64,000 nucleotides of DNA from a virus (IMGVR_UViG_3300034104_001590:129-64128); one strand, 5' to 3'; positions 22,923 to 50,478 are shown, counted from the first letter of the stretch. Program-made: numbers and translations. Notes: generated by a model not told the origin, from the sequence alone.

Positions 22923-23015
22923 TACATTTGTTTTTGTCGAGTGGTAGCGACATTTAAGAAATTTGAAAAATCCCTATAATGAAGAGACTACCACCTCGGA
23001 TTTATAGGGTTTTTT
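22923..23015 (+). promoter_or_regulatory. Promoter (TACATTTG) plus leader with hairpin and terminator whose loops are complementary
   Basis: TGTCG/CGACA hairpin with loop AGTGGTAG; CCCTATAA/TTATAGGG stem plus T-run with inner loop ACTACCAC. Confidence 0.65.
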
Positions 23016-23018
23016 ATT

Positions 23019-23570
23019 ATGGAAGAAATTTGGAAAGAAGTAATTGGATACGAAGGACTATATGAAGTATCTAATATGGGTAGAGTTAGAAGTGTTGACA
23101 GATATGTTAATTCTGGTGGATTAGGAGATAAAGATAGACTATCTCTCAAAAAAGGAAAGATATTAAATTGTAGCCCAACAAAAAGGGGATATACTAGAGT
23201 TAATCTATCAAGAGAATCAAAAATAAAACAAGAATATATACATAGATTAGTTGCTGTTGCATTTTTAAAGGATATAAAAGGAAAAGAAAATGTTAATCAT
23301 ATAAATGGAATAAAGAAAGATAATAGAGCTTGTAATTTAGAATTTGTAAATCAAAGAGAAAATGTATTACACGCTAAAATATATAATGTAAATAAAAATT
23401 GTCCATTTGTATCATATCTTAAAAAATATAATAGATACGAATCATCTATAATCATAAATGGAAAACCAAAGAAATTAGGTAGATTTAAAACAGAAGAAGA
23501 AGCATTTAATTCTTATGTTAAGGCATTAGAAGAGAATGGACTTGAAAATAAATACATTCTGCATAGATAG
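23019..23570 (+). CDS. NUMOD4-HNH homing endonuclease with AP2-like C-terminus
   Basis: EIWKEVIGYEGLYEVSNMGRVRS (NUMOD4); IHRLVA...VNHINGIKKDNRACNLE (HNH); LGRFKTEEEAF (AP2-like). Confidence 0.9.
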   Translation: MEEIWKEVIGYEGLYEVSNMGRVRSVDRYVNSGGLGDKDRLSLKKGKILNCSPTKRGYTRVNLSRESKIKQEYIHRLVAVAFLKDIKGKENVNHINGIKKDNRACNLEFVNQRENVLHAKIYNVNKNCPFVSYLKKYNRYESSIIINGKPKKLGRFKTEEEAFNSYVKALEENGLENKYILHR

Positions 23571-23572
23571 CA

Positions 23573-24343
23573 TTATTTATGGAACATACTCGAGATATAC
23601 TCGTTCATTGAATCCTTTTGTTTAGAATCCATTGACTTGATACGTTTTCTAGCTTTGTTCCAGCTTCCATTAGTTAAGTCATTTAACTTCTGATAAGCAT
23701 CAGTCCACAATGGTCTATACATTCTAGGATCTCTAGCTTTCATAGCATTATAGAACTTTTCTTCAACATAGTCAACTACAGCTCTTTCAAAAAAACGTGG
23801 GATAATAGGCATATCGCCATTCTCTACTCCCATTCCATTATATACGATTCTTAAATAAGGAAACATTCCTGTTTCTTTACTAAGCATAATAAGTCCATTT
23901 TGAACATTATAATAGAACTTCGGGCCATAATAACCTTGCATATTTCCAGTATATGTTCTTTGATTAGGTTGGTAAATATCAGCTCCATTACTACCATCAT
24001 CTTTCACCTGTGCTGTATATCCATTTCCGTCACTCGTATTATTGAATAATCGTTTCCAATAAATAACTTGACTCCTCATTGGATTACACAAAGTTCCATT
24101 GTAACCATAGATTTCACGAATGTTAAATACATTCTTAGGCATTTGATGCTGATGATTTGTAGGCATTTCAATATCCTCTTGAATTGTCAACCAGAATGTA
24201 TCAAAAGATAATTCTTGCATAGCATCTTGTATACGAGAGATATACCACCCTTTTGGAAATCCTTTCTTATAATCAGTATCATTCACAGTTGCTACAATTT
24301 CAGCAAGTAAATGGTCTATGGATACAAAATCGTTAGCTGTCAT
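23573..24343 (-). CDS. Putative tail ring/adaptor protein
   Basis: 256 aa, helical ends with beta core; one of three similar-sized coupled genes between capsid and nozzle genes. Confidence 0.55.
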   Translation of the reverse strand: MTANDFVSIDHLLAEIVATVNDTDYKKGFPKGWYISRIQDAMQELSFDTFWLTIQEDIEMPTNHQHQMPKNVFNIREIYGYNGTLCNPMRSQVIYWKRLFNNTSDGNGYTAQVKDDGSNGADIYQPNQRTYTGNMQGYYGPKFYYNVQNGLIMLSKETGMFPYLRIVYNGMGVENGDMPIIPRFFERAVVDYVEEKFYNAMKARDPRMYRPLWTDAYQKLNDLTNGSWNKARKRIKSMDSKQKDSMNEYISSMFHK

Positions 24344-25068
24344 TATTGTTGTTGTGTTTGTTGAGTATCAGGTAAATTAACTGCCCTATTAGCATACATA
24401 GAAGTATTTAATTGAGCTTCATCTTCACCTTCATTTGCATTTTCTTTAGGCATAAGCATAATGAATTTACCTAATTGTAATACTTGCATCATTAAATCTT
24501 GAATCATCTCATCTGGCAATGGAATCTCTTCATCTATATTACATAGCTTTTTAGGATCCAAACTAGAACGAACTGCTATCTCTACATCCTTAACAGGAGC
24601 ACATTCAATACCTAATAAGTAAAGTCTGTTTACTCCAGTTCCATTAACTTCGTGTCCTATTCGATAGAAATAAGGATTCTTTGAACTAGGCTTCGTGTAT
24701 TCATCACCATATAGATTTTGAACACTTCCAATGTTTACTGGTTGAAACCATACTTGAGCAAATGAAGGGCCTTCACAACTACAAGTTTCCTCGTTGTATG
24801 TAATGTAAATTACCCCACCATTGTTAGGTAAATCCATTACTTGCGTTGGTAAATCAATATACTTTCTTCCTTTAGCGTCAGCGTGAACTGGAATGCTATC
24901 AAATGTTGAAGTAAATAAATCAGATCCAGTAGCCAATACTTGCTGGATTCTAATTCTATTAGCGACAACCATTACCCAATAAAGAACTTGATTAAATGTG
25001 AAATCAGCATCATCAAATGTTGCATTGAAGTTCTTCTGTAAATCGTAAACTACATATCTATACGTCAT
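24343..25068 (-). CDS. Putative tail ring/adaptor protein
   Basis: 241 aa; C-terminal IPLPDEMI pattern; position. Confidence 0.55.
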   Translation of the reverse strand: MTYRYVVYDLQKNFNATFDDADFTFNQVLYWVMVVANRIRIQQVLATGSDLFTSTFDSIPVHADAKGRKYIDLPTQVMDLPNNGGVIYITYNEETCSCEGPSFAQVWFQPVNIGSVQNLYGDEYTKPSSKNPYFYRIGHEVNGTGVNRLYLLGIECAPVKDVEIAVRSSLDPKKLCNIDEEIPLPDEMIQDLMMQVLQLGKFIMLMPKENANEGEDEAQLNTSMYANRAVNLPDTQQTQQQ

Positions 25069-25069
25069 C

Positions 25070-25828
25070 TTACAATACTGTTAATAGTTGTTGAATGTCT
25101 TGAGCAGAAACACCATATAGATTTGTTTGATCTCCTTGCTTATATGAAATGTAATTCAATGCTTTATCGAATAACAATTGAAATACACTATGAGGGAAAT
25201 TAATCTCATCCGCTAATGATGTAACTTGTGTAGGCTTTTTAGCCCAAAATATCGTAACCTCTTCATTCGGCACAGATGGTCTTATTTCCAATTCCTGCGT
25301 CAAATAAGAAGTTGAAGTTCCTTGATAATTAATAGGAGTCAAATAAGCATATAATTTTAACTCATCACATATTTGATTTCCTTGATAACCAGCTTCAAAT
25401 GGATTGTCATAGTTAACAGCCCATTCTTCTAGGTTAAGTCTCTTACAAGATAATTGAGATGACAAATGAAGTTTATTAGGTAAATAATAACTTCTTGTAT
25501 TGTCTGGAGTAGGAGGAACAGGAACTCCTGTTATCTGCCTTGTTACTGGCTTTGGGTATACAGCCAATATAGACCATACTTCACTTGGAAATACAGTCAG
25601 GGAAACCCTGGAGGTGTCGCTAGCACGAAACACCCCCGAAGTTGAAAGTTCCCTAAAAAATTCTTCGCCAATTTTATCCTGTCCATAAGCAGCGTTAACT
25701 ACGGAAGTAAGCCATTTAACAGAAGCATTAATAGATGGAATAATATCCATATCATCTCTATAATGATCTGAATTCTCAGCATCTAATGCAAATCTTATTT
25801 GATCTCTTAATTCCTGGACAGTAATCAT
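25070..25828 (-). CDS. Putative tail ring/head-tail adaptor protein
   Basis: MITVQELRDQIR start, KKPT...INFPHSVFQLL pattern typical of adaptor proteins. Confidence 0.6.
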   Translation of the reverse strand: MITVQELRDQIRFALDAENSDHYRDDMDIIPSINASVKWLTSVVNAAYGQDKIGEEFFRELSTSGVFRASDTSRVSLTVFPSEVWSILAVYPKPVTRQITGVPVPPTPDNTRSYYLPNKLHLSSQLSCKRLNLEEWAVNYDNPFEAGYQGNQICDELKLYAYLTPINYQGTSTSYLTQELEIRPSVPNEEVTIFWAKKPTQVTSLADEINFPHSVFQLLFDKALNYISYKQGDQTNLYGVSAQDIQQLLTVL

Positions 25829-25830
25829 AA

Positions 25831-26637
25831 TTAAGCAATTGTTTTTTCAATAATAGTTCTATCAGTGCTTTTATCAATAGTGGCTTTTTTCAAGCCTCCG
25901 TAAAGCAAACGTTCATGTTGAGCAATAGCTCTCTTGGCTGTTAACTCAACCAATTCTCTACGCATTCTTTCTGGACTTTGACTAACTGAAATACCTTCTT
26001 GTTTAGCTCTCGCTATAATCTGCATATCAGATAATCTTCCAATAGACTGTTGTGCTTCAACCATTTTCTGAGCCCAAGTAGAATCAATATTCATGGCTGA
26101 CTCCATGTTCTCGTAAAATGCAATCCCATATTGAGAATGATTACGTAAATAATCAACAACCTCTTGAGATTGAACTTTTACAGATGAAACAGAAACAACT
26201 TGTATTTCTTTTCCGCTTTTTCTTTTAGTTCTAATCAGTGGTTGGAATTTAATAGGCCCGTGTGGTGGCTCTGATTCAATTCCTCTTTTCTTGTCACCAT
26301 GAATAGAAAAGTTAAATGAGAAAGCAAAGAATACTACTGGTTGCTCTAACCAATCATCTTCTAAGTCACTCACATACTCTAAATCATCATCAAGCTCTCT
26401 CTTAGCTGTAGCTGTCTTTAATTTGTTGATTTGAGCAGTAAACTTCTCTTCCATCTCTCTCATCATTTTTTCAACGAATGATAATGGAATAGATTCTTCT
26501 TTTACTTCTTGCTTTACTTCTTCTTTCTTCGGTTCCTCAATTTCAAATGAAATACCAGATTCTTCTGCGTTCAATCCTTCAAATACTGATTCTTCAGCTT
26601 GAGGGGTAACGTCTTTATTTTCTTTTTTGATTGCCAT
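25831..26637 (-). CDS. Hypothetical morphogenesis protein (268 aa)
   Basis: Intact ORF directly downstream of the capsid gene. Confidence 0.45.
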   Translation of the reverse strand: MAIKKENKDVTPQAEESVFEGLNAEESGISFEIEEPKKEEVKQEVKEESIPLSFVEKMMREMEEKFTAQINKLKTATAKRELDDDLEYVSDLEDDWLEQPVVFFAFSFNFSIHGDKKRGIESEPPHGPIKFQPLIRTKRKSGKEIQVVSVSSVKVQSQEVVDYLRNHSQYGIAFYENMESAMNIDSTWAQKMVEAQQSIGRLSDMQIIARAKQEGISVSQSPERMRRELVELTAKRAIAQHERLLYGGLKKATIDKSTDRTIIEKTIA

Positions 26638-26654
26638 TTTTATAAATTTAATAA

Positions 26655-26685
26655 TTAAATAAAGGGGGAGATTTTAGCCTCCCCC
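26655..26685 (-). terminator. Intrinsic terminator after the major capsid gene
   Basis: GGGGGAG/CTCCCCC stem followed by a T-rich tract on the minus strand. Confidence 0.7.
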
Positions 26686-26700
26686 AATATGTTGTGGATC

Positions 26701-27936: not shown

Positions 27937-27973
27937 TTTTTCTTTAATTTAAGCGGTTTGTAAATAAACTATT

Positions 27974-29152: not shown

Positions 29153-29169
29153 AACTATTTATTTAGGTT

Positions 29170-29177: not shown

Positions 29178-29182
29178 ACAAA

Positions 29183-32024: not shown

Positions 32025-32828
32025 TTAGACAGCAGGACATCCTAAGTAGTTAGCTACAGTAGCCCAAGATCCATCAAGGATAGAAGTCAACTTAGTAACT
32101 GTTGCAGCAGTTCCAGCATCACCAGAGTTCAAATAAACAATAGCTTGTACTGGACGAACAACTTGAAGACCATTTACGATATTGTTACGAAGAAATCTTC
32201 TGTAAGTAATGATGTATCGGTTGTAAGTTCCTGTAACCAATGCAGCATTAGGAATATACTGAAGAACCTCATTAGTTGTTCCTACAGGAGAAGCCCAAGC
32301 AGTAAAATCAGCAACAGTTGCACCAGCAGGAGCATTAACTGTCAATGGACCAAATCCAGCAGCATCAGCTGTAATACGAACAACGTCACCAGCTTGAGAT
32401 GTAGCGGTAAAATAAGCATTAACATCAGCGTTGATACGAGCGATAAATGCAGCTTGTAATTCAGCAACTGTAGCAGTAGCATCCAAAGAAACTGTGTAAG
32501 TTCTTGTTTGGAAAATAGCACCAGACTCTTGACCTCCTCCGAAGAAGCTTTGTACGTATGGAGCATAAACAGTTAACACATAAATTCCGTTGTTAAGGAT
32601 TGTAACACCAGTTAAATCTACATCAACTACGTTAGCTGTACCAGCAGAATAAGCATTGTAGTCAAAGTTGATTAAGTCAGAAGCTTTAAGCACAAGAGCA
32701 GCAGCACCTGATTCATCTTTAACAGTTAATACTCCGTTAGCCAATACTACATCTGTAGCAGCTACAGGCGTGTTTAGCAATAATGCTGAATCAGCATTGA
32801 TTGTTGGTAATTGAAAAGTAATTGCCAT
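32025..32828 (-). CDS. Putative abundant virion protein (auxiliary capsid/decoration)
   Basis: Ala/Thr/Val-rich 267 aa with its own promoter (32908-32915) and terminator; codon style resembles the capsid gene. Confidence 0.55.
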   Translation of the reverse strand: MAITFQLPTINADSALLLNTPVAATDVVLANGVLTVKDESGAAALVLKASDLINFDYNAYSAGTANVVDVDLTGVTILNNGIYVLTVYAPYVQSFFGGGQESGAIFQTRTYTVSLDATATVAELQAAFIARINADVNAYFTATSQAGDVVRITADAAGFGPLTVNAPAGATVADFTAWASPVGTTNEVLQYIPNAALVTGTYNRYIITYRRFLRNNIVNGLQVVRPVQAIVYLNSGDAGTAATVTKLTSILDGSWATVANYLGCPAV

Positions 32829-32939
32829 AATAAATTGTTTTAATACACTGAACTAAGTTCTGTGTGGTAGTTAATAAAAATAACATCACCTCACTGTGAA
32901 TATTTGGCAAATATAGTAAAAAAATTAAACGAAAATTTT

Positions 32940-33110
32940 TGGGTTTGGGTTGTTTCTTTTTTTTTCTTTTCTTTTTGAGTAGTGTATATGAGATATATAT
33001 ATTTATATATATCGAAATATATACTACGTTTTTCTTTCTTTCTTTTGGTTCTTTTCTTTCTTTCTTTGCTTTTTCTTTTCTTTTTTTTTCTTTATTAAAT
33101 TTTTTATCAA
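32940..33110. repeat. Low-complexity T/C and TA tract between divergent promoters; candidate replication origin
   Basis: TTTC/CTTT runs, TATA stretch, TTCTTTTGGTTCTTTTCTTT. Confidence 0.4.
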
Positions 33111-33137: not shown

Positions 33138-33233
33138 TAACTTTGTAGAGCGATGGAAATGACACAAAAAAAATTTATTGGTTAACAAAAATTAGCACCC
33201 CATCTTTTTTCATCGCACCAGGGGTGCTTTTTT
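33138..33233 (+). promoter_or_regulatory. Promoter (TAACTTTG) plus leader with pseudoknotted terminator
   Basis: AGCACCCC/GGGGTGCT stem plus T-run; loop TTTTCATCGC can pair with upstream GCGATGGAAA. Confidence 0.6.
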
Positions 33234-33245: not shown

Positions 33246-33527
33246 ATGGAACAGTTTAGAGTTGTTTGCGTAAACGACAAAGCTAAACCAACTGGATATG
33301 TTGGAGAGTGGCTTGAACAAGGTGAAGTCTACACGGTGATAGATGCTAAGTATCTTATGCGTCAAAGAATGACCATTGGATACAAGCTAGCTGAGATAGA
33401 TATGGATCCTAATTCTGAATATCAATACTTTTTAAGTAACCGATTCAGACCTTATACAGATGAAGACGCTATGATGGAAGTGGCTCTTGAAGAATTACTT
33501 GAAGAAACTTATGCTGAAACGCTGTGA
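33246..33527 (+). CDS. Hypothetical protein (likely ATG start at 33246)
   Basis: VVCVNDK...GEVYTV...RFRP pattern common in small phage proteins. Confidence 0.6.
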   Translation: MEQFRVVCVNDKAKPTGYVGEWLEQGEVYTVIDAKYLMRQRMTIGYKLAEIDMDPNSEYQYFLSNRFRPYTDEDAMMEVALEELLEETYAETL

Positions 33528-34273
33528 TTGAAGTATTTGAAGAATTAGATAAGTTTAGCGGTATTGTCTTCAACGAAGATGCACACACCTATCATTACGA
33601 TGGGACATTATGCACTTCTGTAACTACAGTTATCGGAAGATACAAAGAGCCTTTTGATACTCAAAAGATAGCTACAGCATACGCAGTGAAACGTGGGTTA
33701 AGTGTTTTTGATGTAATTGAAGAGTGGGAAAAGAAAAAGAATGATGCGGCAACTAAAGGAACTCACGCACACAAATATGCTGAATTAAAGTTTGCTTCTA
33801 AACAATATGGTGTAACAGAAGGATTAACAGAATTGTCAGAAATATTACACAGATTGTTTAATATGATTGACACATTTCATCGCGACTGCAAGGGCAGATT
33901 GATTCCTATAAAGTCTGAAATGATTGTTGGAGACAAGAATAGGCGTATATGTGGAATGATAGATCAATTATTTTATAATGTCAGGGCCAAAGAGTTTCAG
34001 ATATGGGATTATAAGACTAATAAAGCTATAAATAAATCCAACAATTACAAGAAGAAGATGACTAATGGTTTATGGCATCTAGATGAGTGTGAGTTCAATA
34101 CATATTCATTACAGCTCGGCTTGTATAAGAAAATAATTGAAGAGAACACAAATATTAAAATCGGAAATTCATATATTTGTTGGATTAATGAGAATAATCA
34201 TACATATAAGCCGATGAAAGTAGCTGATATGCATACGGAAGTTAATCATATTTGGAGTTCTTTAGCCGCGTGA
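33524..34273 (+). CDS. PD-(D/E)XK exonuclease (Cas4/RecB-like)
   Basis: SVTT, GTHAH, ICGMIDQL, IWDYKT and YSLQLGLY motifs. Confidence 0.85.
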   Translation: MIEVFEELDKFSGIVFNEDAHTYHYDGTLCTSVTTVIGRYKEPFDTQKIATAYAVKRGLSVFDVIEEWEKKKNDAATKGTHAHKYAELKFASKQYGVTEGLTELSEILHRLFNMIDTFHRDCKGRLIPIKSEMIVGDKNRRICGMIDQLFYNVRAKEFQIWDYKTNKAINKSNNYKKKMTNGLWHLDECEFNTYSLQLGLYKKIIEENTNIKIGNSYICWINENNHTYKPMKVADMHTEVNHIWSSLAA

Positions 34274-34620
34274 GCACATCGTCTAAATACTCAAGCAATA
34301 AGTTAAAGCAGGTTATAGAAAATAACACTCAGCATTTCATTATTAGATCTTATGTTTCAGCTGCCTTTGAGTATGATCGAAAAGTATATGAATACCATCT
34401 TTATTGGTATAATGCAAACAAAGGAAAATTTGAAGATATGCATTGCTACCAATGTATGTCATTTAAACAACTAAATAGAAAAGAAATCAAATACTTCAAA
34501 TCCATATTAGACGAATACAATAAAGTAGTTGACAATAAATATGGCTGTATATGGGAAAATAAAAAACTAGGATTTAATAAAACCCTAGTTCATATTAATC
34601 AATTAAAATTTGACTTTTAA
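34270..34620 (+). CDS. Hypothetical protein
   Basis: GTGA overlap with the exonuclease stop; intact ORF. Confidence 0.5.
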   Translation: MSTSSKYSSNKLKQVIENNTQHFIIRSYVSAAFEYDRKVYEYHLYWYNANKGKFEDMHCYQCMSFKQLNRKEIKYFKSILDEYNKVVDNKYGCIWENKKLGFNKTLVHINQLKFDF

Positions 34621-39943: not shown

Positions 39944-40075
39944 TTAATACTTTTTCATTGATTTAGTCTGCTTAACTTTCAATGATTTTCCTTTTGGCAT
40001 TTTTTCCATTTTCTTTTCTGCCATCATCATTTCTTTTTTCTTCATGGCCGCAGCCAACTTTTCTTTTAGATTCAT
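39944..40075 (-). CDS. Small Lys/Met-rich protein (43 aa)
   Basis: MNLKEKLAAAMKKKEMMMAEKK...; ATGA coupling to the upstream ORF. Confidence 0.55.
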   Translation of the reverse strand: MNLKEKLAAAMKKKEMMMAEKKMEKMPKGKSLKVKQTKSMKKY

Positions 40076-40239
40076 GATTTCTTCTTTTTAAATTTAGACA
40101 TAAACTTTTCTTTGGCTTCCATCTTTTTAGATTCGCCTTTCTCGTGTTTCATTTTATCTTTCTTAGAAGAGTATTTCTCTTCTGCTTCCGAGCCACCATA
40201 TTCCATGATAGCTTTTTTAAGTGCCATTCCTCTTTTCAT
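40072..40239 (-). CDS. Small Lys-rich protein (55 aa)
   Basis: MKRGMALKKAIMEYGGSEAEEKYSSKKDKMKHEKGESKK...; coupled on both sides. Confidence 0.6.
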   Translation of the reverse strand: MKRGMALKKAIMEYGGSEAEEKYSSKKDKMKHEKGESKKMEAKEKFMSKFKKKKS

Positions 40240-40415
40240 TAGTCGCAGTATTTTTTATCTTTAGTATTCTTATACATCAACTTAAAAGGAACCTTAGAAG
40301 TTGGTGCTTCATCTTTAAGGTCAGCAGCAGCAGGTGGTCGACCTTCTACCCTTCCCTTGTCTACATAGCTTCCATTCTTTTTAGGATTAGAAGCGTAATA
40401 CTTATCAGTTTTCAT
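40239..40415 (-). CDS. Small basic protein (58 aa)
   Basis: MKTDKYYASNPKKNGSYVDKGRVEGRPP...; promoter element at 40428-40435. Confidence 0.6.
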   Translation of the reverse strand: MKTDKYYASNPKKNGSYVDKGRVEGRPPAAADLKDEAPTSKVPFKLMYKNTKDKKYCD

Positions 40416-40464
40416 AATCTTTTTTTACAAATATAAGTAATTTTAATTACCAATTATTATAAAC

Positions 40465-40522
40465 ACAAAACCCTGGGCTTTCAACTCCAGGGCCTTATGC
40501 ATAAACCTTTAAATATGAACGA
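40465..40522 (-). ncRNA. Candidate sRNA unit 3 (~55 nt)
   Basis: TATATTTG at 40525-40532; CCCTGG/CCAGGG terminator plus T4; no ORF. Confidence 0.55.
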
Positions 40523-40534
40523 TACAAATATAAT

Positions 40535-40779
40535 AAAAAACCCTAACAGTCTGCGGTAGCTAATCGCACTTATTAGGGGTTGTTACTAGTTATATGGTTG
40601 TTTATGAAGGCAACGTCTTGCACCCATAAAGCAAGTCCACTTTCCCAGTAACCAAAAAGTCCAGTGTAGTGAGCAGATCTTACGGTATGCTGTCTGGAAC
40701 TTGGCCTATGTCTATCTCAACACAGGGGGGAATAAGTTATTCTGAGCGCGCAGTTCTAATGAGATGCGGAATAACAATA
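40535..40779 (-). ncRNA. Candidate structured ncRNA unit 2 (~245 nt)
   Basis: TATATTTG at 40782-40789; at least five stem-loops; terminal CCCTAATA/TGTTAGGG stem plus T6; GC-richer than flanks. Confidence 0.6.
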
Positions 40780-40791
40780 AGCAAATATAAT

Positions 40792-40875
40792 AAAAAAAGG
40801 TAGCTATTAACTACCTTCCGACCAGGGTTACCCCAATCCATTTGTTTGAATCAAACGATTCTTTGTTAGTGAGAA
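40792..40875 (-). ncRNA. Candidate sRNA unit 1 (~85 nt)
   Basis: TATATTTG at 40878-40885; two hairpins, then AAGGTAG/CTACCTT terminator plus T-run. Confidence 0.55.
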
Positions 40876-40886
40876 TACAAATATAA

Positions 40887-41438
40887 TTAAATTTCTATAT
40901 TATCATAATATTCTTCCAAATCTATATTCCTCCTAGGCATTCGATCAAATTCCTTTACGCAATAGAACATCTTTTTTATCGTGCCCTTATAGAAGTATAT
41001 AGGGTTAATCATATAAGTCCTCCTATTCTTATCCATAGTAAACCGAATGACATCGTGCGCACACAGCTCAGATACACTCTTCATTACATAACGCATACTC
41101 ATATCCGTCAACTGCTGAATATCCCTTAAGCTATAATTCTTTAAAGCATTCCCATAGTTCATTTGTTTAACAAAGAACCGAAGCATTTTATTTGTCGCTG
41201 GCTTTAGCTTATCCATAATATCCAGAGACTCAGAGAAGGCCACCATATACCTCATCTTCTTTCTTCTAAATAAGTTTTCTATCAGGACATCTACTTCTGA
41301 ATTATACGCCTCGGCCAACTGATTGAACTGCCCTTTCTCATCTTTGTAGTATAAGTCAAAGTGTTTAATCTTCTTGGCTAATACCCTATCAGCTTCTAGT
41401 AACAGTAAATCAAATACAATGTTATTCTTCTCCTTCAT
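40887..41438 (-). CDS. RepL-like winged-helix DNA-binding protein
   Basis: HTH-like SLRDIQQLTDMSMRYVMKSVSEL followed by YMINPIYFYKG. Confidence 0.6.
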   Translation of the reverse strand: MKEKNNIVFDLLLLEADRVLAKKIKHFDLYYKDEKGQFNQLAEAYNSEVDVLIENLFRRKKMRYMVAFSESLDIMDKLKPATNKMLRFFVKQMNYGNALKNYSLRDIQQLTDMSMRYVMKSVSELCAHDVIRFTMDKNRRTYMINPIYFYKGTIKKMFYCVKEFDRMPRRNIDLEEYYDNIEI

Positions 41439-41631
41439 TATTTTCTTTTAATGTGTCATTGTAAATCAATCCTAATTCGTGTTGACAATCACATAAGTAA
41501 TATGCGTGAGATTCGCTCATAACAATTAATCCGTTTTTAAATACATCAACGCATATTCCACATTCACAAATATTGTTTTCGCGATAAATCTTTTTACCTA
41601 CCCTATCAATAAACCATTGTAAATCTTTCAT
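41422..41631 (-). CDS. Hypothetical protein (CECGIC motif)
   Basis: Coupled ORF in a small operon. Confidence 0.5.
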   Translation of the reverse strand: MKDLQWFIDRVGKKIYRENNICECGICVDVFKNGLIVMSESHAYYLCDCQHELGLIYNDTLKENNEGEE

Positions 41632-41840
41632 TCTTCTGATTTTAAATTTATAAATCCTTCGAAGTCTAATAAAGGAAGGTTATTCCTATCACAATGGACA
41701 CAGAACTCAGCATACTCCTGGGCCTGTTTAATCTCCATTTTTTGAGCACTCTCAATATCATTCAATAGCAGAACTCCACATTGATTAATGTGTTTCTCGA
41801 CTAGCCAATCAATAGCTGTTTGATTATTTTTTTCTTTCAT
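41628..41840 (-). CDS. Hypothetical protein
   Basis: QTAIDWL...AQKME pattern common in Bacteroidota phages. Confidence 0.55.
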   Translation of the reverse strand: MKEKNNQTAIDWLVEKHINQCGVLLLNDIESAQKMEIKQAQEYAEFCVHCDRNNLPLLDFEGFINLKSEE

Positions 41841-42126
41841 CGATAATCTTCTCTACGTTTAACTTTATTTTTTTTAAATTAGAGAGATTCATCTTATGCC
41901 TGCTGTGCTCATAGAAGATCATACCATTCAACGCCCTGCTAAACTCTACCACATTCATACTCCCCTTCAACTTATTACAATCCCCGCAACATGGTACCTT
42001 ATTAGCATTACTCAATACCCCACCACGACTCTTAGGATACAAATGATCCACAGTCCTACTATAATCATCTAACTGCGTCTTACAATACGCACAGACAGAT
42101 AAATCAACCCCTCCCTTACTAATCAT
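41824..42126 (-). CDS. HNH endonuclease (Zn-binding)
   Basis: CAYC...TVDHLYPKSRGG...NKVPCCGDCNKLKG; promoter element at 42133-42140 favours the ATG at 42126. Confidence 0.85.
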   Translation of the reverse strand: MISKGGVDLSVCAYCKTQLDDYSRTVDHLYPKSRGGVLSNANKVPCCGDCNKLKGSMNVVEFSRALNGMIFYEHSRHKMNLSNLKKIKLNVEKIIDERKK

Positions 42127-42158
42127 ATCCAACAAAGATAATAAATAATCCTAATACT

Positions 42159-42351
42159 TTGTTACCACCTCTATGCGTAAACAACTTGTTACCACCTATA
42201 ACCAACTAAAATCCCTATCCCCATTGACTTCTAACAAAATCCTCTATATACTGTTTATCCCTAAAGATATAAGCAAGAAAATCAATGATTAGTTTATAAT
42301 ACTAAGTTATGTCGGTTATGTAATAAACGATATTACTTATTATGCGTAAAC
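42159..42351. repeat. Short direct repeats TTGTTACCACCT (42159, 42186) and TATGCGTAAAC (42172, 42341)
   Basis: Exact repeats in the long intergenic region. Confidence 0.7.
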
Positions 42352-42919
42352 GTAGCTCACCATCCCATAGTACTATTACCCCTCCCATATCCTAATTCCC
42401 CTACACCAGATATAAGTATTTCATCTATTATCCCTCCTGGTTTTTTAATTATCCACTGGTCGTATCAAAAATAAATCTGTATTCTTCAAGGACTTATACG
42501 TAGTAACCTATCCCCTCCCTATTCTCAAAGGAAAGTCAATCTCAACAATCACTTGCATTGACTTAACTTAACTATCTTTGTTTCAGTTAGTTACATTCAC
42601 TTTGTTAGTGCTTGGATCCCCTTTATTTTTGCTCTTATTTATTGCTAACTTATTAATTTTCAGTGCGTTATATATTCTTGATGATATGCTGAGAATAATA
42701 ATTGCACACTTTTATTCATTAATTATGAACATACCCACCTAAAATATGGTTTAATCTTGCATAAAAATATGGTAACAATACGTCATTTAATATCTACTAT
42801 TTCACTGCAAAAGTCACGTTTTTTGTGCTGAAATCAATAATTTTTAGTGTTATTTAAATCATTGATTATCAGTTAGTTAGCTAATTTATATCTAATTATT
42901 TTTAATTATTTTTAAATTT

Positions 42920-42953
42920 TTTGTTATCAATTCAAAATTTATATATATGTTTG
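42920..42953 (+). promoter_or_regulatory. Putative main early promoter (TTTG...TATGTTTG)
   Basis: -33 TTTG at 42920-42923 and -7 element at 42946-42953 with AT-rich upstream DNA. Confidence 0.65.
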
Positions 42954-42955
42954 TA

Positions 42956-43420
42956 TCGTCATCATTGGTTAACGAACTACTAAAATGAATGACACACACG
43001 AAAAGACTAGTTAACATATATTCTTGTTAATCTCGAAGTTTACTAGTTGTTTAGGTTAATCCTAATTAGTTCCTATCTTATAGGCGTGTGAAGTTCTTTG
43101 TTTATTGATAAGATAGCGTGTAAAAAATTAAATTTTAACGGGTAGACGCTGCACCTAGTCCATGCAAGTTAACACTAGTAGAACGTTGTGAAACGTGGCT
43201 ATAAACTAACATAGGGATATGTTATGGTCTATTGCTTTGAAAGAAAGTATGCATCTAATCGCGTATATGTATGGGGGTAAACTATGTTTACTCAGAACGC
43301 TATTAATATAAATTAATAAACGAAGATAGGTTAACACCTTGAAATAGAATAGAAAAAAAATTCGCCTTGTTTACTATGAGTAATTAACTTCGAGCGAAAC
43401 GAAGCGAGGCACTAACCAAT
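42956..43420 (+). ncRNA. Candidate long structured leader/ncRNA with boxA-like site and tRNA-like 3' element
   Basis: No ORF of 60 aa or more; more than ten hand-paired stems; GTTCTTTG at 43093-43100. Confidence 0.55.
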
Positions 43421-43434
43421 TAATAAACACAAAA

Positions 43435-43815
43435 ATGAAAAACAAAACAATGGGTGCATCTACACAAGTAAAGAAAGTTGTTAGAGTAACGGCAACAAAG
43501 AAAGCTATTCAAGTGACTAGCAAAAAAGAAAAAGTAACCTACTTATCTGAAGGGGTAACGGGCAAACAAATGATGACTGCTATTTATGACGCAAATAATC
43601 GCCATAAAAAAGACTTAGGGTCATTGAGTCAATGTTTGAAGAGAGCTATTGAATTCGGCAAAGATGATTTTACCAAAACAATAAAAGGTTTTAATGTAAA
43701 AGACTGCACCCCGAAAAACTTAGTGCCGTTGCGAAGTGCAAAGAATGCTTCTAAAGAAACGTTTAGCGTTTACGAAGTGTTAATGTTAATCAAGAAATAC
43801 TACCAAACAAAATAA
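43435..43815 (+). CDS. First early gene, basic hypothetical protein
   Basis: 126 aa, A-rich leader, followed by a terminator. Confidence 0.7.
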   Translation: MKNKTMGASTQVKKVVRVTATKKAIQVTSKKEKVTYLSEGVTGKQMMTAIYDANNRHKKDLGSLSQCLKRAIEFGKDDFTKTIKGFNVKDCTPKNLVPLRSAKNASKETFSVYEVLMLIKKYYQTK

Positions 43816-44298: not shown

Positions 44299-44379
44299 AA
44301 TGGGAACTTTTGTATACCTACTAGTGCTCTATTCAGTAGTAGCAACATTGAAAATTATTTACCTAAAAAAATAAGAGAG

Positions 44380-44706: not shown

Positions 44707-44712
44707 AATAAA

Positions 44713-44895: not shown

Positions 44896-44905
44896 ATAAA
44901 GTAAG

Positions 44906-45262: not shown

Positions 45263-45272
45263 AAAAAGCAAG

Positions 45273-45476
45273 ATGACATTTATAATCTATTTAATAGTAA
45301 CGGCAACAATTGTTTTTGTTCCGTACTACATAGGGAAATTAGCTAACAAAGTATTTCCATTAACAAACGATTGGTATGGGCACTGGTATATAGGCTTAAT
45401 GTATTGTTTTATGGTATCGGGCGTAGTAACATTTATAATCATAACATCTAACGGAGTAATCAACTTAATTAAATAA
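45273..45476 (+). CDS. Small membrane protein (two hydrophobic segments)
   Basis: Two ~20-aa hydrophobic stretches. Confidence 0.55.
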   Translation: MTFIIYLIVTATIVFVPYYIGKLANKVFPLTNDWYGHWYIGLMYCFMVSGVVTFIIITSNGVINLIK

Positions 45477-45482
45477 AGTAAT

Positions 45483-45608
45483 ATGTATAAACTAATCTGG
45501 AAAGGCGAAGAAATTGACACCGCAGACACAATGAAAGAAGCTATCTCTCTACAAAGAGAATATCAGATGGCTTATGGTGGAATAGTAACTATTAAAAAGT
45601 CAAGATGA
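45483..45608 (+). CDS. Small hypothetical protein (41 aa)
   Basis: MYKLIWKGEEIDTADTMKEAISLQREYQMAYGG..., a recurrent small phage protein pattern. Confidence 0.55.
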   Translation: MYKLIWKGEEIDTADTMKEAISLQREYQMAYGGIVTIKKSR

Positions 45609-45639
45609 CAACAAGTCAAAAAATCATCACTATCATTTT

Positions 45640-45669
45640 GCCCGTAGCTATTGGAGTTACGGGTTTTTT
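45640..45669 (+). terminator. Intrinsic terminator upstream of the amidoligase gene
   Basis: GCCCGTAGCT/AGTTACGGGT stem plus T-run. Confidence 0.6.
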
Positions 45670-45698
45670 ATTAACCAATATACTAAAATAAACTAATT

Positions 45699-47219
45699 AT
45701 GAACACGATTGCAAAAGAACTAAGAGACTTACTGCCTCAATCATTCGTTATCAAGGCAGAACTTGACCATCCACAATGGAAAATGTATATTAACTTTATT
45801 AATTCCGTTGGAGGTAGCTACAACGGAGACTCAGCAGAACTATACTATGGTTTGAAATATGTGCCTGATCTATCAGCAACATACACAGTATCATACAATG
45901 AATGCGAATCATTTGATAGCACTATAATAACAATGAGCGAGCTATTAAAAATAGTGGGTATAGAAGAAATACTACCAGAAATGGTGACTACCTACGATGG
46001 CGAAGAACATCCAAAACATAAATGTGTTCAGATACACGAAGATAGCCCACGTCACGCAGAAGAATGGGCATTAATAGAAGAATGCACATACGCAAATATA
46101 AATGGTGGATACGCATTACACGATCACGTTATTCATGTTCGCGGTGGAGATGTAGTAATAGAAGGAACTGAAGATATAAATTGTATTGTATGGAGTGGAT
46201 TCGAAGAAGAATATTTAGATCAGGATAGTTCTGATGTATTATTCGGTTATGTAACGGATAGAAGAGGAACTACATACGAAGACTATTTCATTCGCATATA
46301 CGATACTTGTGAGATGGATGGGGATTATTATAGATGTAATGATTCACTCAGAAATCAAGGCTATATGTATTCAGAAAGACAAGATGAATGGGTGCATGAG
46401 AATTATTGGGATTCAGATATTCACGAGTATCAAGATGAAGATGACGAGGCTAACAATGCTGGATATCATTCGCTACCTAGACAAACTAGATTCGATTCAT
46501 CTGCAAAGTTCACTGTTGGATTCGAGATTGAGAAAGAAGATTCAGATATGGCAGACCTTGACTATGATAGACTATATAGAAACACAGGTTGGATAAAAGA
46601 AAAAGATGCCTCACTAGATGATAGCACTGGATACGAGCTTGTATCTCCTGCATTCAATCTATTCGATGACAAAATGGAAATCGAGATAGGCAAGAGTCAG
46701 GAGTTACGTGACCTTATCAATGCAGAACATTCATCTGATTGCGGTGGGCATATCAATCTAGGTTCAACAATATACACTACCGAACAACTATTCGAAGGTA
46801 TATCTGGATTCTTTCCATTGTTCTATTCAATGTATGAACATAGAATTGATAAGGACTATTCTAAAGCTAAGAAGAAACACGAATACTATAACAGAGACAA
46901 GTATTCATCTATCTATATCAAGCCAAATGTGGTAGAGATTAGAATTCCTTCAGCTGTTAGAAGCGTTAACAATCTACTATGGCGAAGAGACTTAATGAGA
47001 ATCATTGTCGACAACTTCAACAAGTCTGAAATGCAAGTGCTTAGAATGTTAGCTAATACAAAGTCTAAGCTACACATTCACCTTAGACAAGTATATTCTT
47101 TGGATCAAATGATTCAGAAGATAGAAAAGTTTATCAAGTATTCAGACCAATTCAATAACAAGAAATTACCTAATGTAAATACAGCTAAGCTAGTAGATAA
47201 GAAATCATTAGCAGCTTAA
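45699..47219 (+). CDS. Putative amidoligase (COOH-NH2 ligase) with acidic N-terminal extension
   Basis: VGFEIEKE, KDASL, GYELVSP, CGGHIN and VEIR motifs. Confidence 0.8.
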   Translation: MNTIAKELRDLLPQSFVIKAELDHPQWKMYINFINSVGGSYNGDSAELYYGLKYVPDLSATYTVSYNECESFDSTIITMSELLKIVGIEEILPEMVTTYDGEEHPKHKCVQIHEDSPRHAEEWALIEECTYANINGGYALHDHVIHVRGGDVVIEGTEDINCIVWSGFEEEYLDQDSSDVLFGYVTDRRGTTYEDYFIRIYDTCEMDGDYYRCNDSLRNQGYMYSERQDEWVHENYWDSDIHEYQDEDDEANNAGYHSLPRQTRFDSSAKFTVGFEIEKEDSDMADLDYDRLYRNTGWIKEKDASLDDSTGYELVSPAFNLFDDKMEIEIGKSQELRDLINAEHSSDCGGHINLGSTIYTTEQLFEGISGFFPLFYSMYEHRIDKDYSKAKKKHEYYNRDKYSSIYIKPNVVEIRIPSAVRSVNNLLWRRDLMRIIVDNFNKSEMQVLRMLANTKSKLHIHLRQVYSLDQMIQKIEKFIKYSDQFNNKKLPNVNTAKLVDKKSLAA

Positions 47220-47245
47220 TTATTAACTAAATAAAACTAAATAAA

Positions 47246-48121
47246 ATGTGTATAGCAATTCTTAATACAAAACAAACTACTCTTAAAAAACAATTACTTA
47301 AAAATTGTTGGGAGAACAATGGCGATGGTGCAGGTATGTTGTATATCGACAACGACAATCAACTTAAAGTATTCAAAGAAATGAAGAGCTTTAATACGTT
47401 CTATAACAACTACATAGACATCAAGCAAAAGTATGGTAAGCGTAACATTGTATTGCACTTCCGTATCTCTACTCACGGCAAGATTAACAAAACAAATTGT
47501 CACCCATTCCTTGTTGATGACAACTTAGGATTCGTTCATAATGGTATGATATACAATGCACCTACGAGCACTGAGTATTCAGATACATATATGTTCAATG
47601 AAACAATACTCAAGAAGTTCAAGCCTGGATTCGAATACGATGATGACATACTAGACTTATTAGCTGAGTATATCGGCAATGGTAGTAAGTTAGTATTCCT
47701 CAATTCAAATGATGAGTGGGCTATTGTTAATGAGGCAGCAGGACATTGGAATATGGGCTGTTGGTTTTCTAACTCTTCATACAAGCAAGTCAATGATTGG
47801 TATGACTTCGGAGGTATCAAGAAGCAAAAGTCTACTGCTAAGAAAACTACTCCTACATTCGATAGAACATTCCATTGGACAAGTAATGAGAACTATATCA
47901 GTGCTCACCAATCACAATACTGCACAGGCTGCGATATGATGCTTAGTGGCTTGAAAGAAATAGAAGATGGTATGTGTGCTTGGTGCAAGGAAGAAGAATC
48001 AATTAGAGAGCTAGAAGATATGACATTGGATTGTGAACTATGTGATGGCACTAATGGTAAATACAATCACTATTACAATGCTTTCACTTGCGAGGAATGC
48101 GATAAGTATCTAGGAGCATAA
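47246..48121 (+). CDS. Class II (Ntn) glutamine amidotransferase with C-terminal Zn-ribbon
   Basis: N-terminal MC, NGDGAG, HFRISTHG, HPF, HNG and SDT motifs; four CxxC pairs at the C-terminus. Confidence 0.88.
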   Translation: MCIAILNTKQTTLKKQLLKNCWENNGDGAGMLYIDNDNQLKVFKEMKSFNTFYNNYIDIKQKYGKRNIVLHFRISTHGKINKTNCHPFLVDDNLGFVHNGMIYNAPTSTEYSDTYMFNETILKKFKPGFEYDDDILDLLAEYIGNGSKLVFLNSNDEWAIVNEAAGHWNMGCWFSNSSYKQVNDWYDFGGIKKQKSTAKKTTPTFDRTFHWTSNENYISAHQSQYCTGCDMMLSGLKEIEDGMCAWCKEEESIRELEDMTLDCELCDGTNGKYNHYYNAFTCEECDKYLGA

Positions 48122-48149
48122 ATCACTATCCACAAATAAATAAATAATT

Positions 48150-48704
48150 ATGGCAAACAACTGTTGGAATTACGCAGTCTTATCGGGTGATAAGGCTGCA
48201 TTAGATGAGATTCAAGAACGATTCTCTAAGTATGATGACACAAATTACTTCACTGAGTTTGGAGATATTGTGCTTAAAAAAGAAATGAAAGAAGACTATT
48301 CATCATTAAGCTTCGATGAATACTACCAATACGGAACAAAGTGGTGGGATTTCAACATAGATGAAAGAACAGACAATACGTTAATCATATCAGGAGATAG
48401 TGCTTGGAGTCCACCTCTAGAATTACTACGTCAAATATCAGAAGTGTATAACGTAACAATAGAGGGCGAATACAATGAATGTGGAATGGGCTTCGGAGGA
48501 TTCTTTGTGTGTGAAGATGGTATCTTATCAGATAATGAAATGACTTACTTTGAATATCAATTAGAATCAGATAGAGAATGGGCTATCGATGAAGTTATCA
48601 ATAACTTACAAGATTGGGATGAAGAGTTTGATGAAGATGCTTACCCTCAGCTTACTCAACAAGAGAAAGAATATATTAAAGAACAATTAAAGAAAGAAGT
48701 ATGA
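48150..48704 (+). CDS. DUF1281/YubB ferredoxin-like fold protein
   Basis: MANNCWN start, YGTKW, SAWSPP and YNECGMGFGG motifs. Confidence 0.75.
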   Translation: MANNCWNYAVLSGDKAALDEIQERFSKYDDTNYFTEFGDIVLKKEMKEDYSSLSFDEYYQYGTKWWDFNIDERTDNTLIISGDSAWSPPLELLRQISEVYNVTIEGEYNECGMGFGGFFVCEDGILSDNEMTYFEYQLESDREWAIDEVINNLQDWDEEFDEDAYPQLTQQEKEYIKEQLKKEV

Positions 48705-48919
48705 AAACATATTATGTAGTTCAGTATAACGATTGCTACGGCAACGGAGATACTCAATTAGAGGTAATTGTAGAAAGCCACGAAGATTTTATTAAGTGGT
48801 TAGAAATTCATAACAAAGAAAGAGCAGACTTACAAGACATAGATGTTGATGATGATGACTTTTGTTATGAGGGTGAAGATGAATTCGATTTAATACCATT
48901 AACATTATATAAAGCATGA
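48701..48919 (+). CDS. Small very acidic protein
   Basis: D/E-rich 72 aa, ATGA-coupled. Confidence 0.55.
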   Translation: MKTYYVVQYNDCYGNGDTQLEVIVESHEDFIKWLEIHNKERADLQDIDVDDDDFCYEGEDEFDLIPLTLYKA

Positions 48920-49092
48920 AAGACTTATTTGAGACACCAGAACTAATACCTAATAATGTAATGAGTATCCTAGAAACATTCGAAGATAATACATACGATG
49001 AATGCGATAGAATACAAAATGAATTAGAGCATATAGGATATACATTCGACTACTACCTAGATGCTGAACCTTTTAATCTTAGAAAGTTATGA
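48916..49092 (+). CDS. Small hypothetical protein (58 aa)
   Basis: MKDLFETPELIP...GYTFDYYLDAEPFNLRKL; ATGA-coupled. Confidence 0.6.
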   Translation: MKDLFETPELIPNNVMSILETFEDNTYDECDRIQNELEHIGYTFDYYLDAEPFNLRKL

Positions 49093-49237
49093 CAAATGAA
49101 ATGAGATTAGATGCTATCGAATTAGCATTGAAAGTTAAAAGAATTGAATTAGATAGACACCTACTGCAAGCAGTAGTTCAAATCGTAGACTTAGTAAATG
49201 AAAAAGGATACAAATTAACTATTAAAGATTTAAAGCC

Positions 49238-49453
49238 ATGACAGAACAAGAAGCTAAAGAAGTATTACGCAAGGCAGGATACTTTGTGGATAATCTATGG
49301 CATATAGATGACGTAGACTTAGATGGGGCAAGCAATGAAGATAAAATGCAGATACTAGATGATGTATTTTCTAGTAGACATCTTATCTCAATGATATTCG
49401 AATCTATTGCAGATGCTAAAGACTATTATAAATTCAAAAAACAAAACAAATGA
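49238..49453 (+). CDS. Hypothetical protein
   Basis: AKEVLRKAGYFVDNLWHIDDV; coupled ORF. Confidence 0.55.
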   Translation: MTEQEAKEVLRKAGYFVDNLWHIDDVDLDGASNEDKMQILDDVFSSRHLISMIFESIADAKDYYKFKKQNK

Positions 49454-49920
49454 GACAACAATTAATTTATATCATTGAAACTTATTCAAATGATGATTTA
49501 ACAATTAATGATTGGGTTGAGATTGCTATGGAATCAGAAACACAATTAATATCTAGAGTTCACAAAATATTAGAATATTACTTTAACGAAAATCAAACAA
49601 TATGAAAACATACCACATTTGCTATCTAATCGGAAATGAATTATGCTCAGGGATAAATATCTTAGCAGAGAATTACATTCACGCAATCGTAGAGTTCCAG
49701 GATAGATTTAAAAATAAGAAAATCATTTATGTAACAGAACTATTAGGCGCATGATACGATACATACAATCAATATTATCATTGATACTAATATGGATAAC
49801 GTTGAACACAAACGTAAATGCATTCGTCAAGGTAATGATAACAATCGTATGCTTAACTTATGTAGTAACATTATTAATTTCATTATTAGTCAAAGGAAAA
49901 AACAATTAACTTAGTATAAA

Positions 49921-50316
49921 ATGACAGAAATGACAGTATTAGAATTATTACTCGACTATCTACCTTCAGATTATGTAGACTGTATTGTAAATAATTTAGA
50001 AGATAGAAAAGTATTAGAAGATGATGCATACTCAATAGAAGGAGAGATGATGTCGCTATTTGATTGGGCCGACTCAAAGGAAGGCTATGACTTCTGGAAT
50101 CAAGTATTCCATTACGTATTAGGTAACTCAGAACTTCCTCCACTACCAATTGTAATAGACTATAAACCATCTTCCGTTATCTATGCAGATGATGTTATCT
50201 ACGTTATGAATGTAGGCAGCACAAACATTAACATAAAGATGAATGTTGATCTTAAAGAACTGAATAAAGCCACTAATCAGAAATCAAAAGCTGAGGTTTA
50301 TTCCTGGTTAAATTAA
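49921..50316 (+). CDS. Hypothetical protein
   Basis: FDWADSKEGYDFW motif recurrent in Bacteroidota phages. Confidence 0.6.
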   Translation: MTEMTVLELLLDYLPSDYVDCIVNNLEDRKVLEDDAYSIEGEMMSLFDWADSKEGYDFWNQVFHYVLGNSELPPLPIVIDYKPSSVIYADDVIYVMNVGSTNINIKMNVDLKELNKATNQKSKAEVYSWLN

Positions 50317-50368
50317 ATCACTATCATCATTTTTTTTTACAAAAAACTTTTTTATTAAAAATCTTTTA

Positions 50369-50478
50369 TATATTTGCTGTGTCGAACCTCAACTTCGATT
50401 ACATTTAAAGTTGTTTATATACTCTTATCATATATATAAACTACCCTAGTCAAGTTGAGGAAGTGGCTAGGGTTTTTT
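50369..50478 (+). promoter_or_regulatory. Promoter (TATATTTG) plus leader with hairpin and terminator whose loops are complementary
   Basis: GTCGAA/TTCGAT hairpin with loop CCTCAAC; ACCCTAGTCA/TGGCTAGGGT stem plus T-run with loop containing GTTGAGG. Confidence 0.65.

Follow-up and report, generated by a model that had tools for sequence, protein, structure and literature searches.

In the C4 immunity RNAs of phages P1 and P7, complementary leader segments provide a specificity that depends on a few paired bases; in the packaging RNA (pRNA) of phage phi29, two complementary loops covary among relatives; and in the hok mRNA a covarying pairing of the 5' and 3' ends (tac/fbi) locks a closed form. 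Here we describe three promoter-proximal leader RNAs (A, B and C) of a virus, encoded in a 64,000-nt stretch of DNA (IMGVR_UViG_3300034104_001590:129-64128; hereafter the window), in which the loop of a putative intrinsic terminator is complementary to the 5' segment of the same transcript. The comparisons presented here, all of them comparisons of sequence, indicate that this loop-loop complementarity is under selection and that the loop sequences behave as interchangeable codes on constant stems. We suggest that A, B and C form one architectural class of leader, an intrinsic attenuator clamped by an intramolecular kissing loop, a proposal that we regard as about evenly poised between right and wrong.

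Like an intrinsic terminator attenuator, the leaders carry a promoter-proximal GC-rich hairpin and a U-tract ahead of the regulated gene, and read-through is needed downstream. Unlike such attenuators, they show no evident antiterminator pairing, ligand aptamer or protein site and no leader-peptide logic (apart from a small open reading frame, ORF, in leader C), and their loop is enlarged and tied to the hairpin at the 5' end of the transcript. Corrinoid (cobalamin) riboswitches provide another parallel: their L5-L13 loop-loop helix stabilizes the hairpin of the expression platform and decides expression, but there the upstream loop is part of a large ligand aptamer whose consensus is conserved, and P13 and the terminator are separate elements (PMC10327014). 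The present leaders, at about 90 nt, have no aptamer, hypervariable loops, a partner that is the terminator's own loop, and no Rfam match. The P4 CI RNA and Gifsy-1 IsrK resemble them in having mutually complementary leader segments, short and long isoforms from one promoter and few-base specificity (PMC4825925). However, the P4, P1 and IsrK RNAs act in trans after processing, belong to temperate elements and have two target sites or Rho-dependent effects, whereas here a single pair lies in two hairpin loops of one short RNA, and neither integrase nor repressor families, nor other lysogeny genes, were seen among 40 scanned proteins (many ORFs lie outside that scan). Neither the leaders nor their surroundings show a conspicuous second target site of 8 nt or more, and the Rfam models for C4, IsrK or related RNAs gave no match at any threshold used. 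In the phi29 pRNA, a single gene linked to packaging, the loops pair between molecules and form a ring on the portal; the leaders are three units in one genome that precede unrelated genes and end in a terminator, none has an Rfam match, and their sequences would allow pairing within or between molecules. The hok mRNA, finally, pairs linear end segments of a full mRNA, blocking translation and antisense binding, and not the loops of a 90-nt leader.

A search of the whole window with Rfam 15 at gathering thresholds gave no match. Around A (E<=10) the best scores were at most 21 bits against thresholds of 45-100, around B there were chance-level matches only (best 26.9 bits against 76), and a locus of fam1, a structured RNA found downstream of B in some relatives, gave none. 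The element matches no Rfam family and, judged by its sequence features, fails the testable defining features of the P4/P1 immunity RNAs and of cobalamin riboswitches, in agreement with the initial annotation, made by reading the window alone, which could assign no named family. A full-text literature search returned no description of a phage leader with hairpin-loop to terminator-loop pairing. A catalogue published in 2023 lists 8495 unnamed candidate RNAs from IMG/VR, of which 1241 have predicted terminators; its main text does not use the word 'kissing', and the leader motif may still be among its candidates (PMC10690425). A loop code that varies between phages yet keeps its complementarity points to a previously undescribed RNA control element.

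Architecture of leaders A, B and C

We use L1 for the 5' segment or first-hairpin loop, L2 for the complementary stretch in the terminator loop and H1 for the 5'-terminal hairpin. Each leader consists of a TAnnTTTG box, which we take to be the promoter -7 box of Bacteroidota, a 5' segment, and a GC-rich hairpin followed by a T-run (Table 1). The 5' segment is a hairpin loop in A and B, and the terminator loop contains its reverse complement, which extends over 7 nt (A), 9 nt (B) or 10 nt (C; GCGATGGAAA with TTTTCATCGC, including one G-U). The three terminator stems are of 7-9 bp with at least three GC pairs and are followed by T6, and the distance from TAnnTTTG to the 5' arm of the terminator is 57-75 nt (start to start). 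The terminator loops measure 22 nt (A), 11-17 nt (B) and 19 nt (C), against 3-8 nt in a typical intrinsic terminator; ordinary terminators of this phage also have loops of 3-8 nt, and large loops occur only in the leader terminators. RNAfold predicts both hairpins with open loops in A and B. A mechanical scan of both strands singled out A, B and C: no other terminator hairpin of the window has both a complement of 6 nt or more and a TAnnTTTG at most 160 nt upstream.

Direct reading located all the loop strings and coordinates quoted in the initial annotation, and bears out its account of a TAnnTTTG promoter and a terminator-like hairpin whose loop complements the 5' end, as well as the lack of a clear first hairpin in C, where no stem flanks L1 in the window. 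A and B do share TGTCGA and ACATTTAA, as it had noticed, although by itself ACATTTAA occurs in the window about as often as chance predicts (8 copies, against 8.3 expected). A single sequence family for A, B and C was considered and rejected, the covariance model of the B type finding neither A nor C; on this evidence the three share architecture and not detectable sequence homology. Searching the portal loci of relatives with A, B and C (blastn-short) returned just the A terminator with the start of the HNH gene, in two loci. Since the leaders are too diverged for sequence search, synteny and structure were used to find relatives, which were drawn from viral and lake metagenome contigs (loci numbered with L). 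These relatives carry the architecture at matching positions, with more than 30 different loop sequences by a tally of the printed lists. In 35 of 39 unique units L1 is flanked by a stem of 3 bp or more, and H1 starts 1-4 nt past the promoter box, i.e. at the extreme 5' end.

The linkers between H1 and terminator (26 representative units; e.g. 22953-22971, 33160-33194 and 50400-50443) carry a degenerate U-rich motif, ATTTTAG / TTTAAG ... GGTT. TTTAG occurs in 10 of the 26 linkers against 2.5 expected and TTTTA in 15 against 5.8; enriched yet too degenerate, the motif was rejected as an assignable element.

Covariation of the loop codes among relatives

Loci of the B type were found through the helicase gene, two pattern scans and a covariance model, giving 16 unique evaluable leaders. 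A loop-loop complement of 8-9 nt is present in 15 of them, with 11 different L1 codes (CCTCAAC, CTCACTC, CTCCACT, CTCGCAC, CTCGTAC, CTCGTCC, CTGCAAC, CTGCTCC, CTGGATC, TCCACAC and TTCGTCC). Pattern matches outside the phage group, which serve as a built-in negative control, lack the promoter/terminator context and have complements of at most 5 nt in 15 of 15 cases. In alignment A1 (MAFFT, eight B-type leaders, the kissing helix scored as a pseudoknot) all six pairs of the H1 stem are invariant and the terminator stem has five invariant pairs, three one-sided changes and one two-sided change, whereas each of the seven pairs of the kissing helix has changed in both partners and 92.3% of its cells remain paired. 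The A1 covariation score was reached by none of 500 shuffles, and sliding the partner by 1-3 columns lowers pairing to 26-40%. Reading of the alignment rows attributes the four unpaired cells of A1 to one relative, L076. Six more units at the B position differ in both stems and codes (L075, L079, L080, L085, L088 and L092), and a unit is also present in L062, a phage with just 38% portal identity. Outside these relatives, a nucleotide search of the B region against 50,697 phage records gave no match, no locus was recovered when the ORF after B guided a protein-based search, and with the 506-aa protein as guide a single near-identical contig came up, which ends before B.

At the C position, the intergenic region between homologues of a 267-aa gene (32025-32828, minus strand) and a 93-aa gene was cut from every locus, relying on the conserved synteny around the portal gene, which yielded 47 unique regions. 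A strict parser recognized promoter and terminator in 36 of the 47, and 31 of these 36 leaders have a perfect complement of 6-11 nt between the first 35 nt after the promoter and the terminator loop. At least 13 differing codes are present (GTTAGGA, TGTGAGTT, AGACTAGCA, AGATTAGCA, GGATATGA, TAGCAATTAGA, ATACGG, TGGTTGG, GTGCAG, AATGCAG, GATGCAG and GTGCGG, with GCGATG in the window), and L003 and L007 differ by a single compensated pair (AGACTAGC/GCTAGTCT versus AGATTAGC/GCTAATCT). Six of the 11 regions that the parser rejected have complements of 7-8 nt under a tolerant scan; in L057 and L061, likewise rejected, complements are visible by eye only. In a control set of 19 representatives from the C position (first 30 nt against the loop), the cognate complement has a median of 7 nt and a perfect match of at least 6 nt is found in 16, whereas shuffled terminator loops reached at least 6 nt in 336 of 3800 trials; the leader against the same-sense loop, and the rest of the leader against the loop, gave a maximum of 5.

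As to leader A, a 45%-identical HNH gene stands in L033 and L056 behind the same leader with the same loops, with compensatory changes in both the H1 and the terminator stems, and in L124 (another contig type) a 41%-identical HNH gene follows a leader that is built alike and carries a different code (CCTTCGAC/GTCGAAGG). A nucleotide search of the A region against the 50,697 phage records returned only fragments of the HNH gene or of neighbouring genes.

The initial annotation had argued for selection on structure and had named loop-loop covariation in homologues as the check on it; such covariation is what the two-sided changes at the B type and the complements kept at the C position demonstrate. 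It is formally conceivable that the pairing is no RNA feature at all but a chance inverted repeat, or a pair of DNA sites for a protein or recombinase, and a test of G-U against A-C at the helix flanks indeed gave no RNA-strand signal (11 versus 16). Considering, though, that more than 30 sequences keep complementarity at three genome positions, where a protein site would be conserved and not hypervariable, that the repeats occupy the loops of hairpins which, on one strand, are bounded by a promoter and a T-run, and that the matches outside the phage group have so little complement, we hold a DNA-level origin to be barely credible.

Table 1. Positions of the leaders, their parts and the features that follow them (window coordinates, except where an L number gives the locus)
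Feature	Coordinates	Strand	Details
Leader A	22923-23015	+	
A promoter -7 box	22923-22930	+	TACATTTG (TAnnTTTG type)
A H1	22935-22952	+	TGTCG / loop AGTGGTAG / CGACA; L1 GTGGTAG 22941-22947
A terminator	22972-23015	+	CCCTATAA / 22-nt loop / TTATAGGG (hairpin 22972-23009) + T6; L2 CTACCAC 22988-22994
HNH/NUMOD4 homing-endonuclease-like gene served by leader A	23019-23570	+	
Leader C	33138-33233	+	
C promoter -7 box	33138-33145	+	TAACTTTG
C 5' segment L1	33150-33159	+	GCGATGGAAA, without flanking stem in the window genome
C terminator	33195-33233	+	GCACCCC / 19-nt loop / GGGGTGC (hairpin 33195-33227) + T6; L2 TTTTCATCGC 33207-33216
Unit served by leader C	33246-34620	+	93-aa gene (33246-33527), PD-(D/E)XK exonuclease (33524-34273), 122-aa gene
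Leader B	50369-50478	+	
B promoter -7 box	50369-50376	+	TATATTTG
B H1	50381-50399	+	GTCGAA / CCTCAAC / TTCGAT; L1 CCTCAAC 50387-50393
B terminator	50444-50478	+	CCCTAGTCA / 11-nt loop / TGGCTAGGG (hairpin 50444-50472) + T6; L2 GTTGAGG 50454-50460
fam2, conserved structured non-coding RNA	50479-50746	+	no promoter motif of its own; reached only by B read-through
fam2 in relatives	L086 2621-2890; L071 150-450; L093; L079		
fam1 in relatives	L072 3140-3425; L073, L074, L102, L066, L088, L075, L092, L080		

A proposed kissing-loop clamp weighed against other readings

We propose the following course of events for the clamped attenuator. Transcription would start a few bases after the Bacteroidota-type TAnnTTTG box, and the first 20-30 nt would usually fold as the 5'-terminal hairpin H1. 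Some 20-50 nt past H1 a strong GC-rich hairpin with a U-tract would follow, its loop enlarged to 7-26 nt to hold a 6-11-nt L2 complementary to L1. L1 and L2 would then join in a kissing helix within the molecule, which leaves both stems in place, clamps or closes the oversized terminator loop and stacks H1 on the terminator. Termination by the host RNA polymerase at the hairpin and U-tract would be the default outcome, the product would be a compact RNA of 85-105 nt with both ends closed and protected, and the downstream HNH gene, exonuclease unit or RNA of about 270 nt would be made from the read-through fraction only.

Two features of the leaders shape this proposal. The L1-L2 pairing is confined to the loops and never reaches the terminator stem, so it is compatible with the terminator and not in competition with it. 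Of the attenuator or antiterminator with orthogonal loop codes envisaged in the initial annotation, the shared architecture and the code-like loops are supported, and nothing found points to an antiterminator. There is, moreover, no promoter motif between the leader and the downstream genes, whose start codons lie 4-25 nt past the T-run in the A and C types (ATG after 4 nt in A and after 13 nt in C), which implies that these genes depend on read-through. For L1 paired with the terminator loop, computed free-duplex energies (median -11.7 kcal/mol) are similar to those of the terminator hairpins (-14.0). We infer termination at the hairpin, a gain in termination or stability from the kissing helix, and some form of modulation; the corrinoid riboswitch, in which a kissing loop can stabilize the hairpin of the expression platform (PMC10327014), offers a precedent. 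Since the leaders lack an aptamer and their loops vary, a small ligand is unlikely to be read at the loop site.

Several observations weigh against the clamp. Judged by computed energies, the terminator stems could form unaided, and the kissing helix may serve something besides termination. A standard terminator scan (loops of 3-8 nt) misses A and B, because ordinary terminator loops are of that size, and calls for C just a short alternative hairpin (33215-33227). The G-U versus A-C comparison given above carries no strand signal. Five of the 36 parsed C-position leaders have a terminator and no detectable complement (L027, L038, L040, L042 and L054), and three of the 47 C-position regions have no leader, the promoter lying 17 nt ahead of the ATG as in an ordinary gene; in favour of our proposal, this ordinary arrangement in three relatives marks the C-position leader as an inserted module. 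In L076 the B-type L1 no longer matches its own L2, which may reflect a natural one-sided block swap of the code or an assembly chimera. The faster turnover of the loop code than of the stems, finally, is unexplained by the clamp model.

Over 7318 nt, L076 and L071 share 99.75% identity, and 15 positions are mismatched. When L076 942-1044 is set by eye against L071 48-150, five of the seven L1 loop positions differ, i.e. the differences are clustered.

One alternative is that the terminated short RNA is itself the product of a stable small RNA gene, with read-through incidental; the loop pairing would give a closed nuclease-resistant fold, or copies would join hand in hand, the L1 of one with the L2 of the next, as in the phi29 packaging RNA. 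The position of H1, 1-4 nt after the promoter box, would leave both ends hairpin-closed, B precedes another RNA gene and not a protein gene, and three further tandem promoter-terminator mini-units exist in the phage (40885-40471, minus strand). The short distance from T-run to start codon in the A and C types, with no promoter motif between, argues in contrast that the genes need read-through, multimers are disfavoured since a linker of 20-50 nt makes the intramolecular helix sterically easy, and no other genome target for the loops was found (a search of the window for extra targets of six loop strings gave nothing above chance). We therefore consider the small-RNA alternative unlikely, albeit worth keeping in mind.

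Another possibility is code-specific control in trans, as by P4 CI and P1 C4, to which the initial annotation had loosely compared the leaders, or by Gifsy-1 IsrK: the short RNA, or a processed half of it, would use its loop to pair with nascent or read-through transcripts of its own unit and thereby set termination or translation, and the variable code would prevent cross-talk between units and between co-infecting relatives. The loop pair would then be an RNA address label through which only transcripts of the same code are recognized. The codes change as blocks, 11 of them are carried on an invariant H1 stem, L071 and L076 are nearly identical yet have clustered loop differences, and in the window each of the three units has a code of its own. 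A fast turnover of the code is what would be expected if code identity matters, as in antisense incompatibility and in P1/P7 and P4 immunity. There are also precedents (PMC4825925), in that the short form of IsrK works in trans, its own read-through isoform being the target, and the P4 CI RNA pairs with seqA and seqC. On the other hand, both partners lie in one RNA, so that the released RNA would be self-closed and inert unless processed, and no processing signal was found; there is a single complementary pair and not two target sites as in P4; the 40 scanned proteins include neither integrase nor repressor; the best extra matches in the window are single 9-mers, each with about 0.5 expected; differing codes within a genome are expected by chance; and L076 could be an assembly chimera. 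Trans control, and with it the P4/P1-like comparison, accordingly appears to us distinctly doubtful. The address-label idea, with termination or translation set without protein and the block-wise turnover read as diversifying selection, likens code turnover on constant stems to plasmid incompatibility or P1/P7 heteroimmunity, and is in our judgement similarly improbable. If true, it would give a lytic phage RNA-only timers or a self/non-self discrimination among co-infecting relatives.

A device at the level of the mRNA or of translation, in which L2 pairs either with the downstream start region or with L1 as a decoy copy of it, and the partner of L2 decides translation, can also be envisaged. 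The terminator loop complements the start region (-12 to +9) over at least 7 nt in three of 16 ORF-adjacent units (L085, L001 and L008), compared with six of 240 non-cognate pairs; L1 repeats the start region in L085 and L008, and in the window L1 of C shares ATGGAA with the real start. However, 13 of the 16 units show no such complement, nor does A, the B-type units have no adjacent ORF, and the resemblance may be a relic of a gene-start duplication, and so we rate a translational device as quite improbable. Within leader C there is a mini-ORF of 10 codons (33153-33185, plus strand; MEMTQKKFIG) whose ATG lies inside L1 and which opens like the real gene (ATGGAA); an ATG in L1 also occurs in L008 and the AATGCAG group and is not general.

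The leaders add a well-supported RNA motif class from an uncultured freshwater phage clade. Under the clamped-attenuator reading, which we prefer, a terminator wired to the 5' end of its own transcript by a re-codable loop helix of 7-9 bp would be a natural set of orthogonal parts that could be copied for synthetic transcription control, and the leaders would offer a direct handle on the effect of tertiary contacts on intrinsic termination. Were the code to work in trans as well, a lytic phage would possess an RNA-only specificity system.

Genes, RNAs and genome around the leaders

The initial annotation had A and C controlling nuclease-containing units. This holds for A, which precedes an HNH/NUMOD4 gene, and for C, whose unit includes a PD-(D/E)XK exonuclease; as a general rule it does not, as B leads into a non-coding RNA of about 270 nt. 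The HNH gene of leader A is absent in most relatives, where its two neighbours abut. In L033 and L056 the cassette lies between genes other than those in the window, i.e. at a different insertion site, so that promoter, leader and HNH gene form one mobile unit. The cassette is always antisense to the surrounding late genes, and the late-gene transcript must traverse it in antisense. On the minus strand the A terminator (22972-23009) is also a perfect palindrome-like hairpin, followed by ATTTTTC. Two more HNH-family genes, at 41824-42135 (minus strand; HNH_5/HNH) and 57430-57882 (plus strand; HNH_3), do not stand behind a kissing-loop leader.

Upstream of the C promoter, 32930-33110 contains TTTGGGTTTGGGTT, an AT-rich palindromic block and a polypyrimidine tract of about 80 nt (CTTTT/CTTTC). 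By eye these elements look better conserved among relatives than the adjoining leaders, and the region may be an origin or packaging site.

Leader B points to two more unnamed structured RNAs under such control. The ~270 nt after B contain no ORF and are 76-84% conserved in relatives whose helicase is 56-83% identical. This region exists in two unrelated forms, fam2 (the window and five other loci) and fam1 (13 loci, some of them duplicates of one contig). The consensus fold of fam2 has 42 pairs, seven of them compensated, with a long hairpin (GGTGATGAATAAGTTATC...GATAACTTGTTTGTTATCACC) and a second stem; fam1, of about 285 nt, is closed by a long-range stem of 10 bp, and its consensus fold has 57 pairs, 13 of them compensated. 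Neither matched Rfam. Since the ORFs beyond fam1 and fam2 differ between phages, both look like RNA genes in their own right, reachable, as far as promoter motifs indicate, only via read-through of the B terminator.

The window covers nearly all of a single-contig genome of 64,128 bp (33.5% GC), and its proteins include a portal, a large terminase, a DnaB-type helicase, a Rad52-like protein, SSB, a holin and a CHAP peptidase; no tRNA genes were found in it. The portal had no match among the 50,697 deposited phage records (tblastn) and no relative in 185,579 prokaryote genomes, and 64 relatives were found among IMG/VR contigs. Considering also that the window DNA occurs in lake and other freshwater metagenome runs, we conclude that the phage is a member of an uncultured freshwater clade without a cultured relative. 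TAnnTTTG lies 12-21 nt upstream of the ATG in many ordinary genes of the phage (for example at 4324, 13791, 16821, 29177, 37860 and 40435 on the minus strand, and at 52174 and 58751 on the plus strand). It is not enriched genome-wide (99 observed, 87 expected from shuffles), and we read it as a promoter because of its position ahead of starts and not its overall frequency. A Bacteroidota host is presumed from the assignment of this motif.

A large ORF-poor stretch separates the terminase from the replication module (39950-43435), with divergent promoters at 42140 (minus strand) and 42946 (plus strand) and a leader of about 490 nt ahead of the gene at 43435. C-rich short repeats occupy 42100-42560, and a direct repeat, TTGTTACCACCT, at 42160 and 42187 has TACCACCT(C) in common with the L2 region of A. 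The three tandem promoter-to-terminator units at 40885-40471 (minus strand) are of about 85, 246 (unit D) and 60 nt, and each T-run leads directly into the next TATATTTG box. None of the three has a loop-loop complement. The terminator of unit D (CCCTAATA...TGTTAGGG) has a 22-nt loop, in which CTACCGC could pair with L1 of leader A via one G-U.

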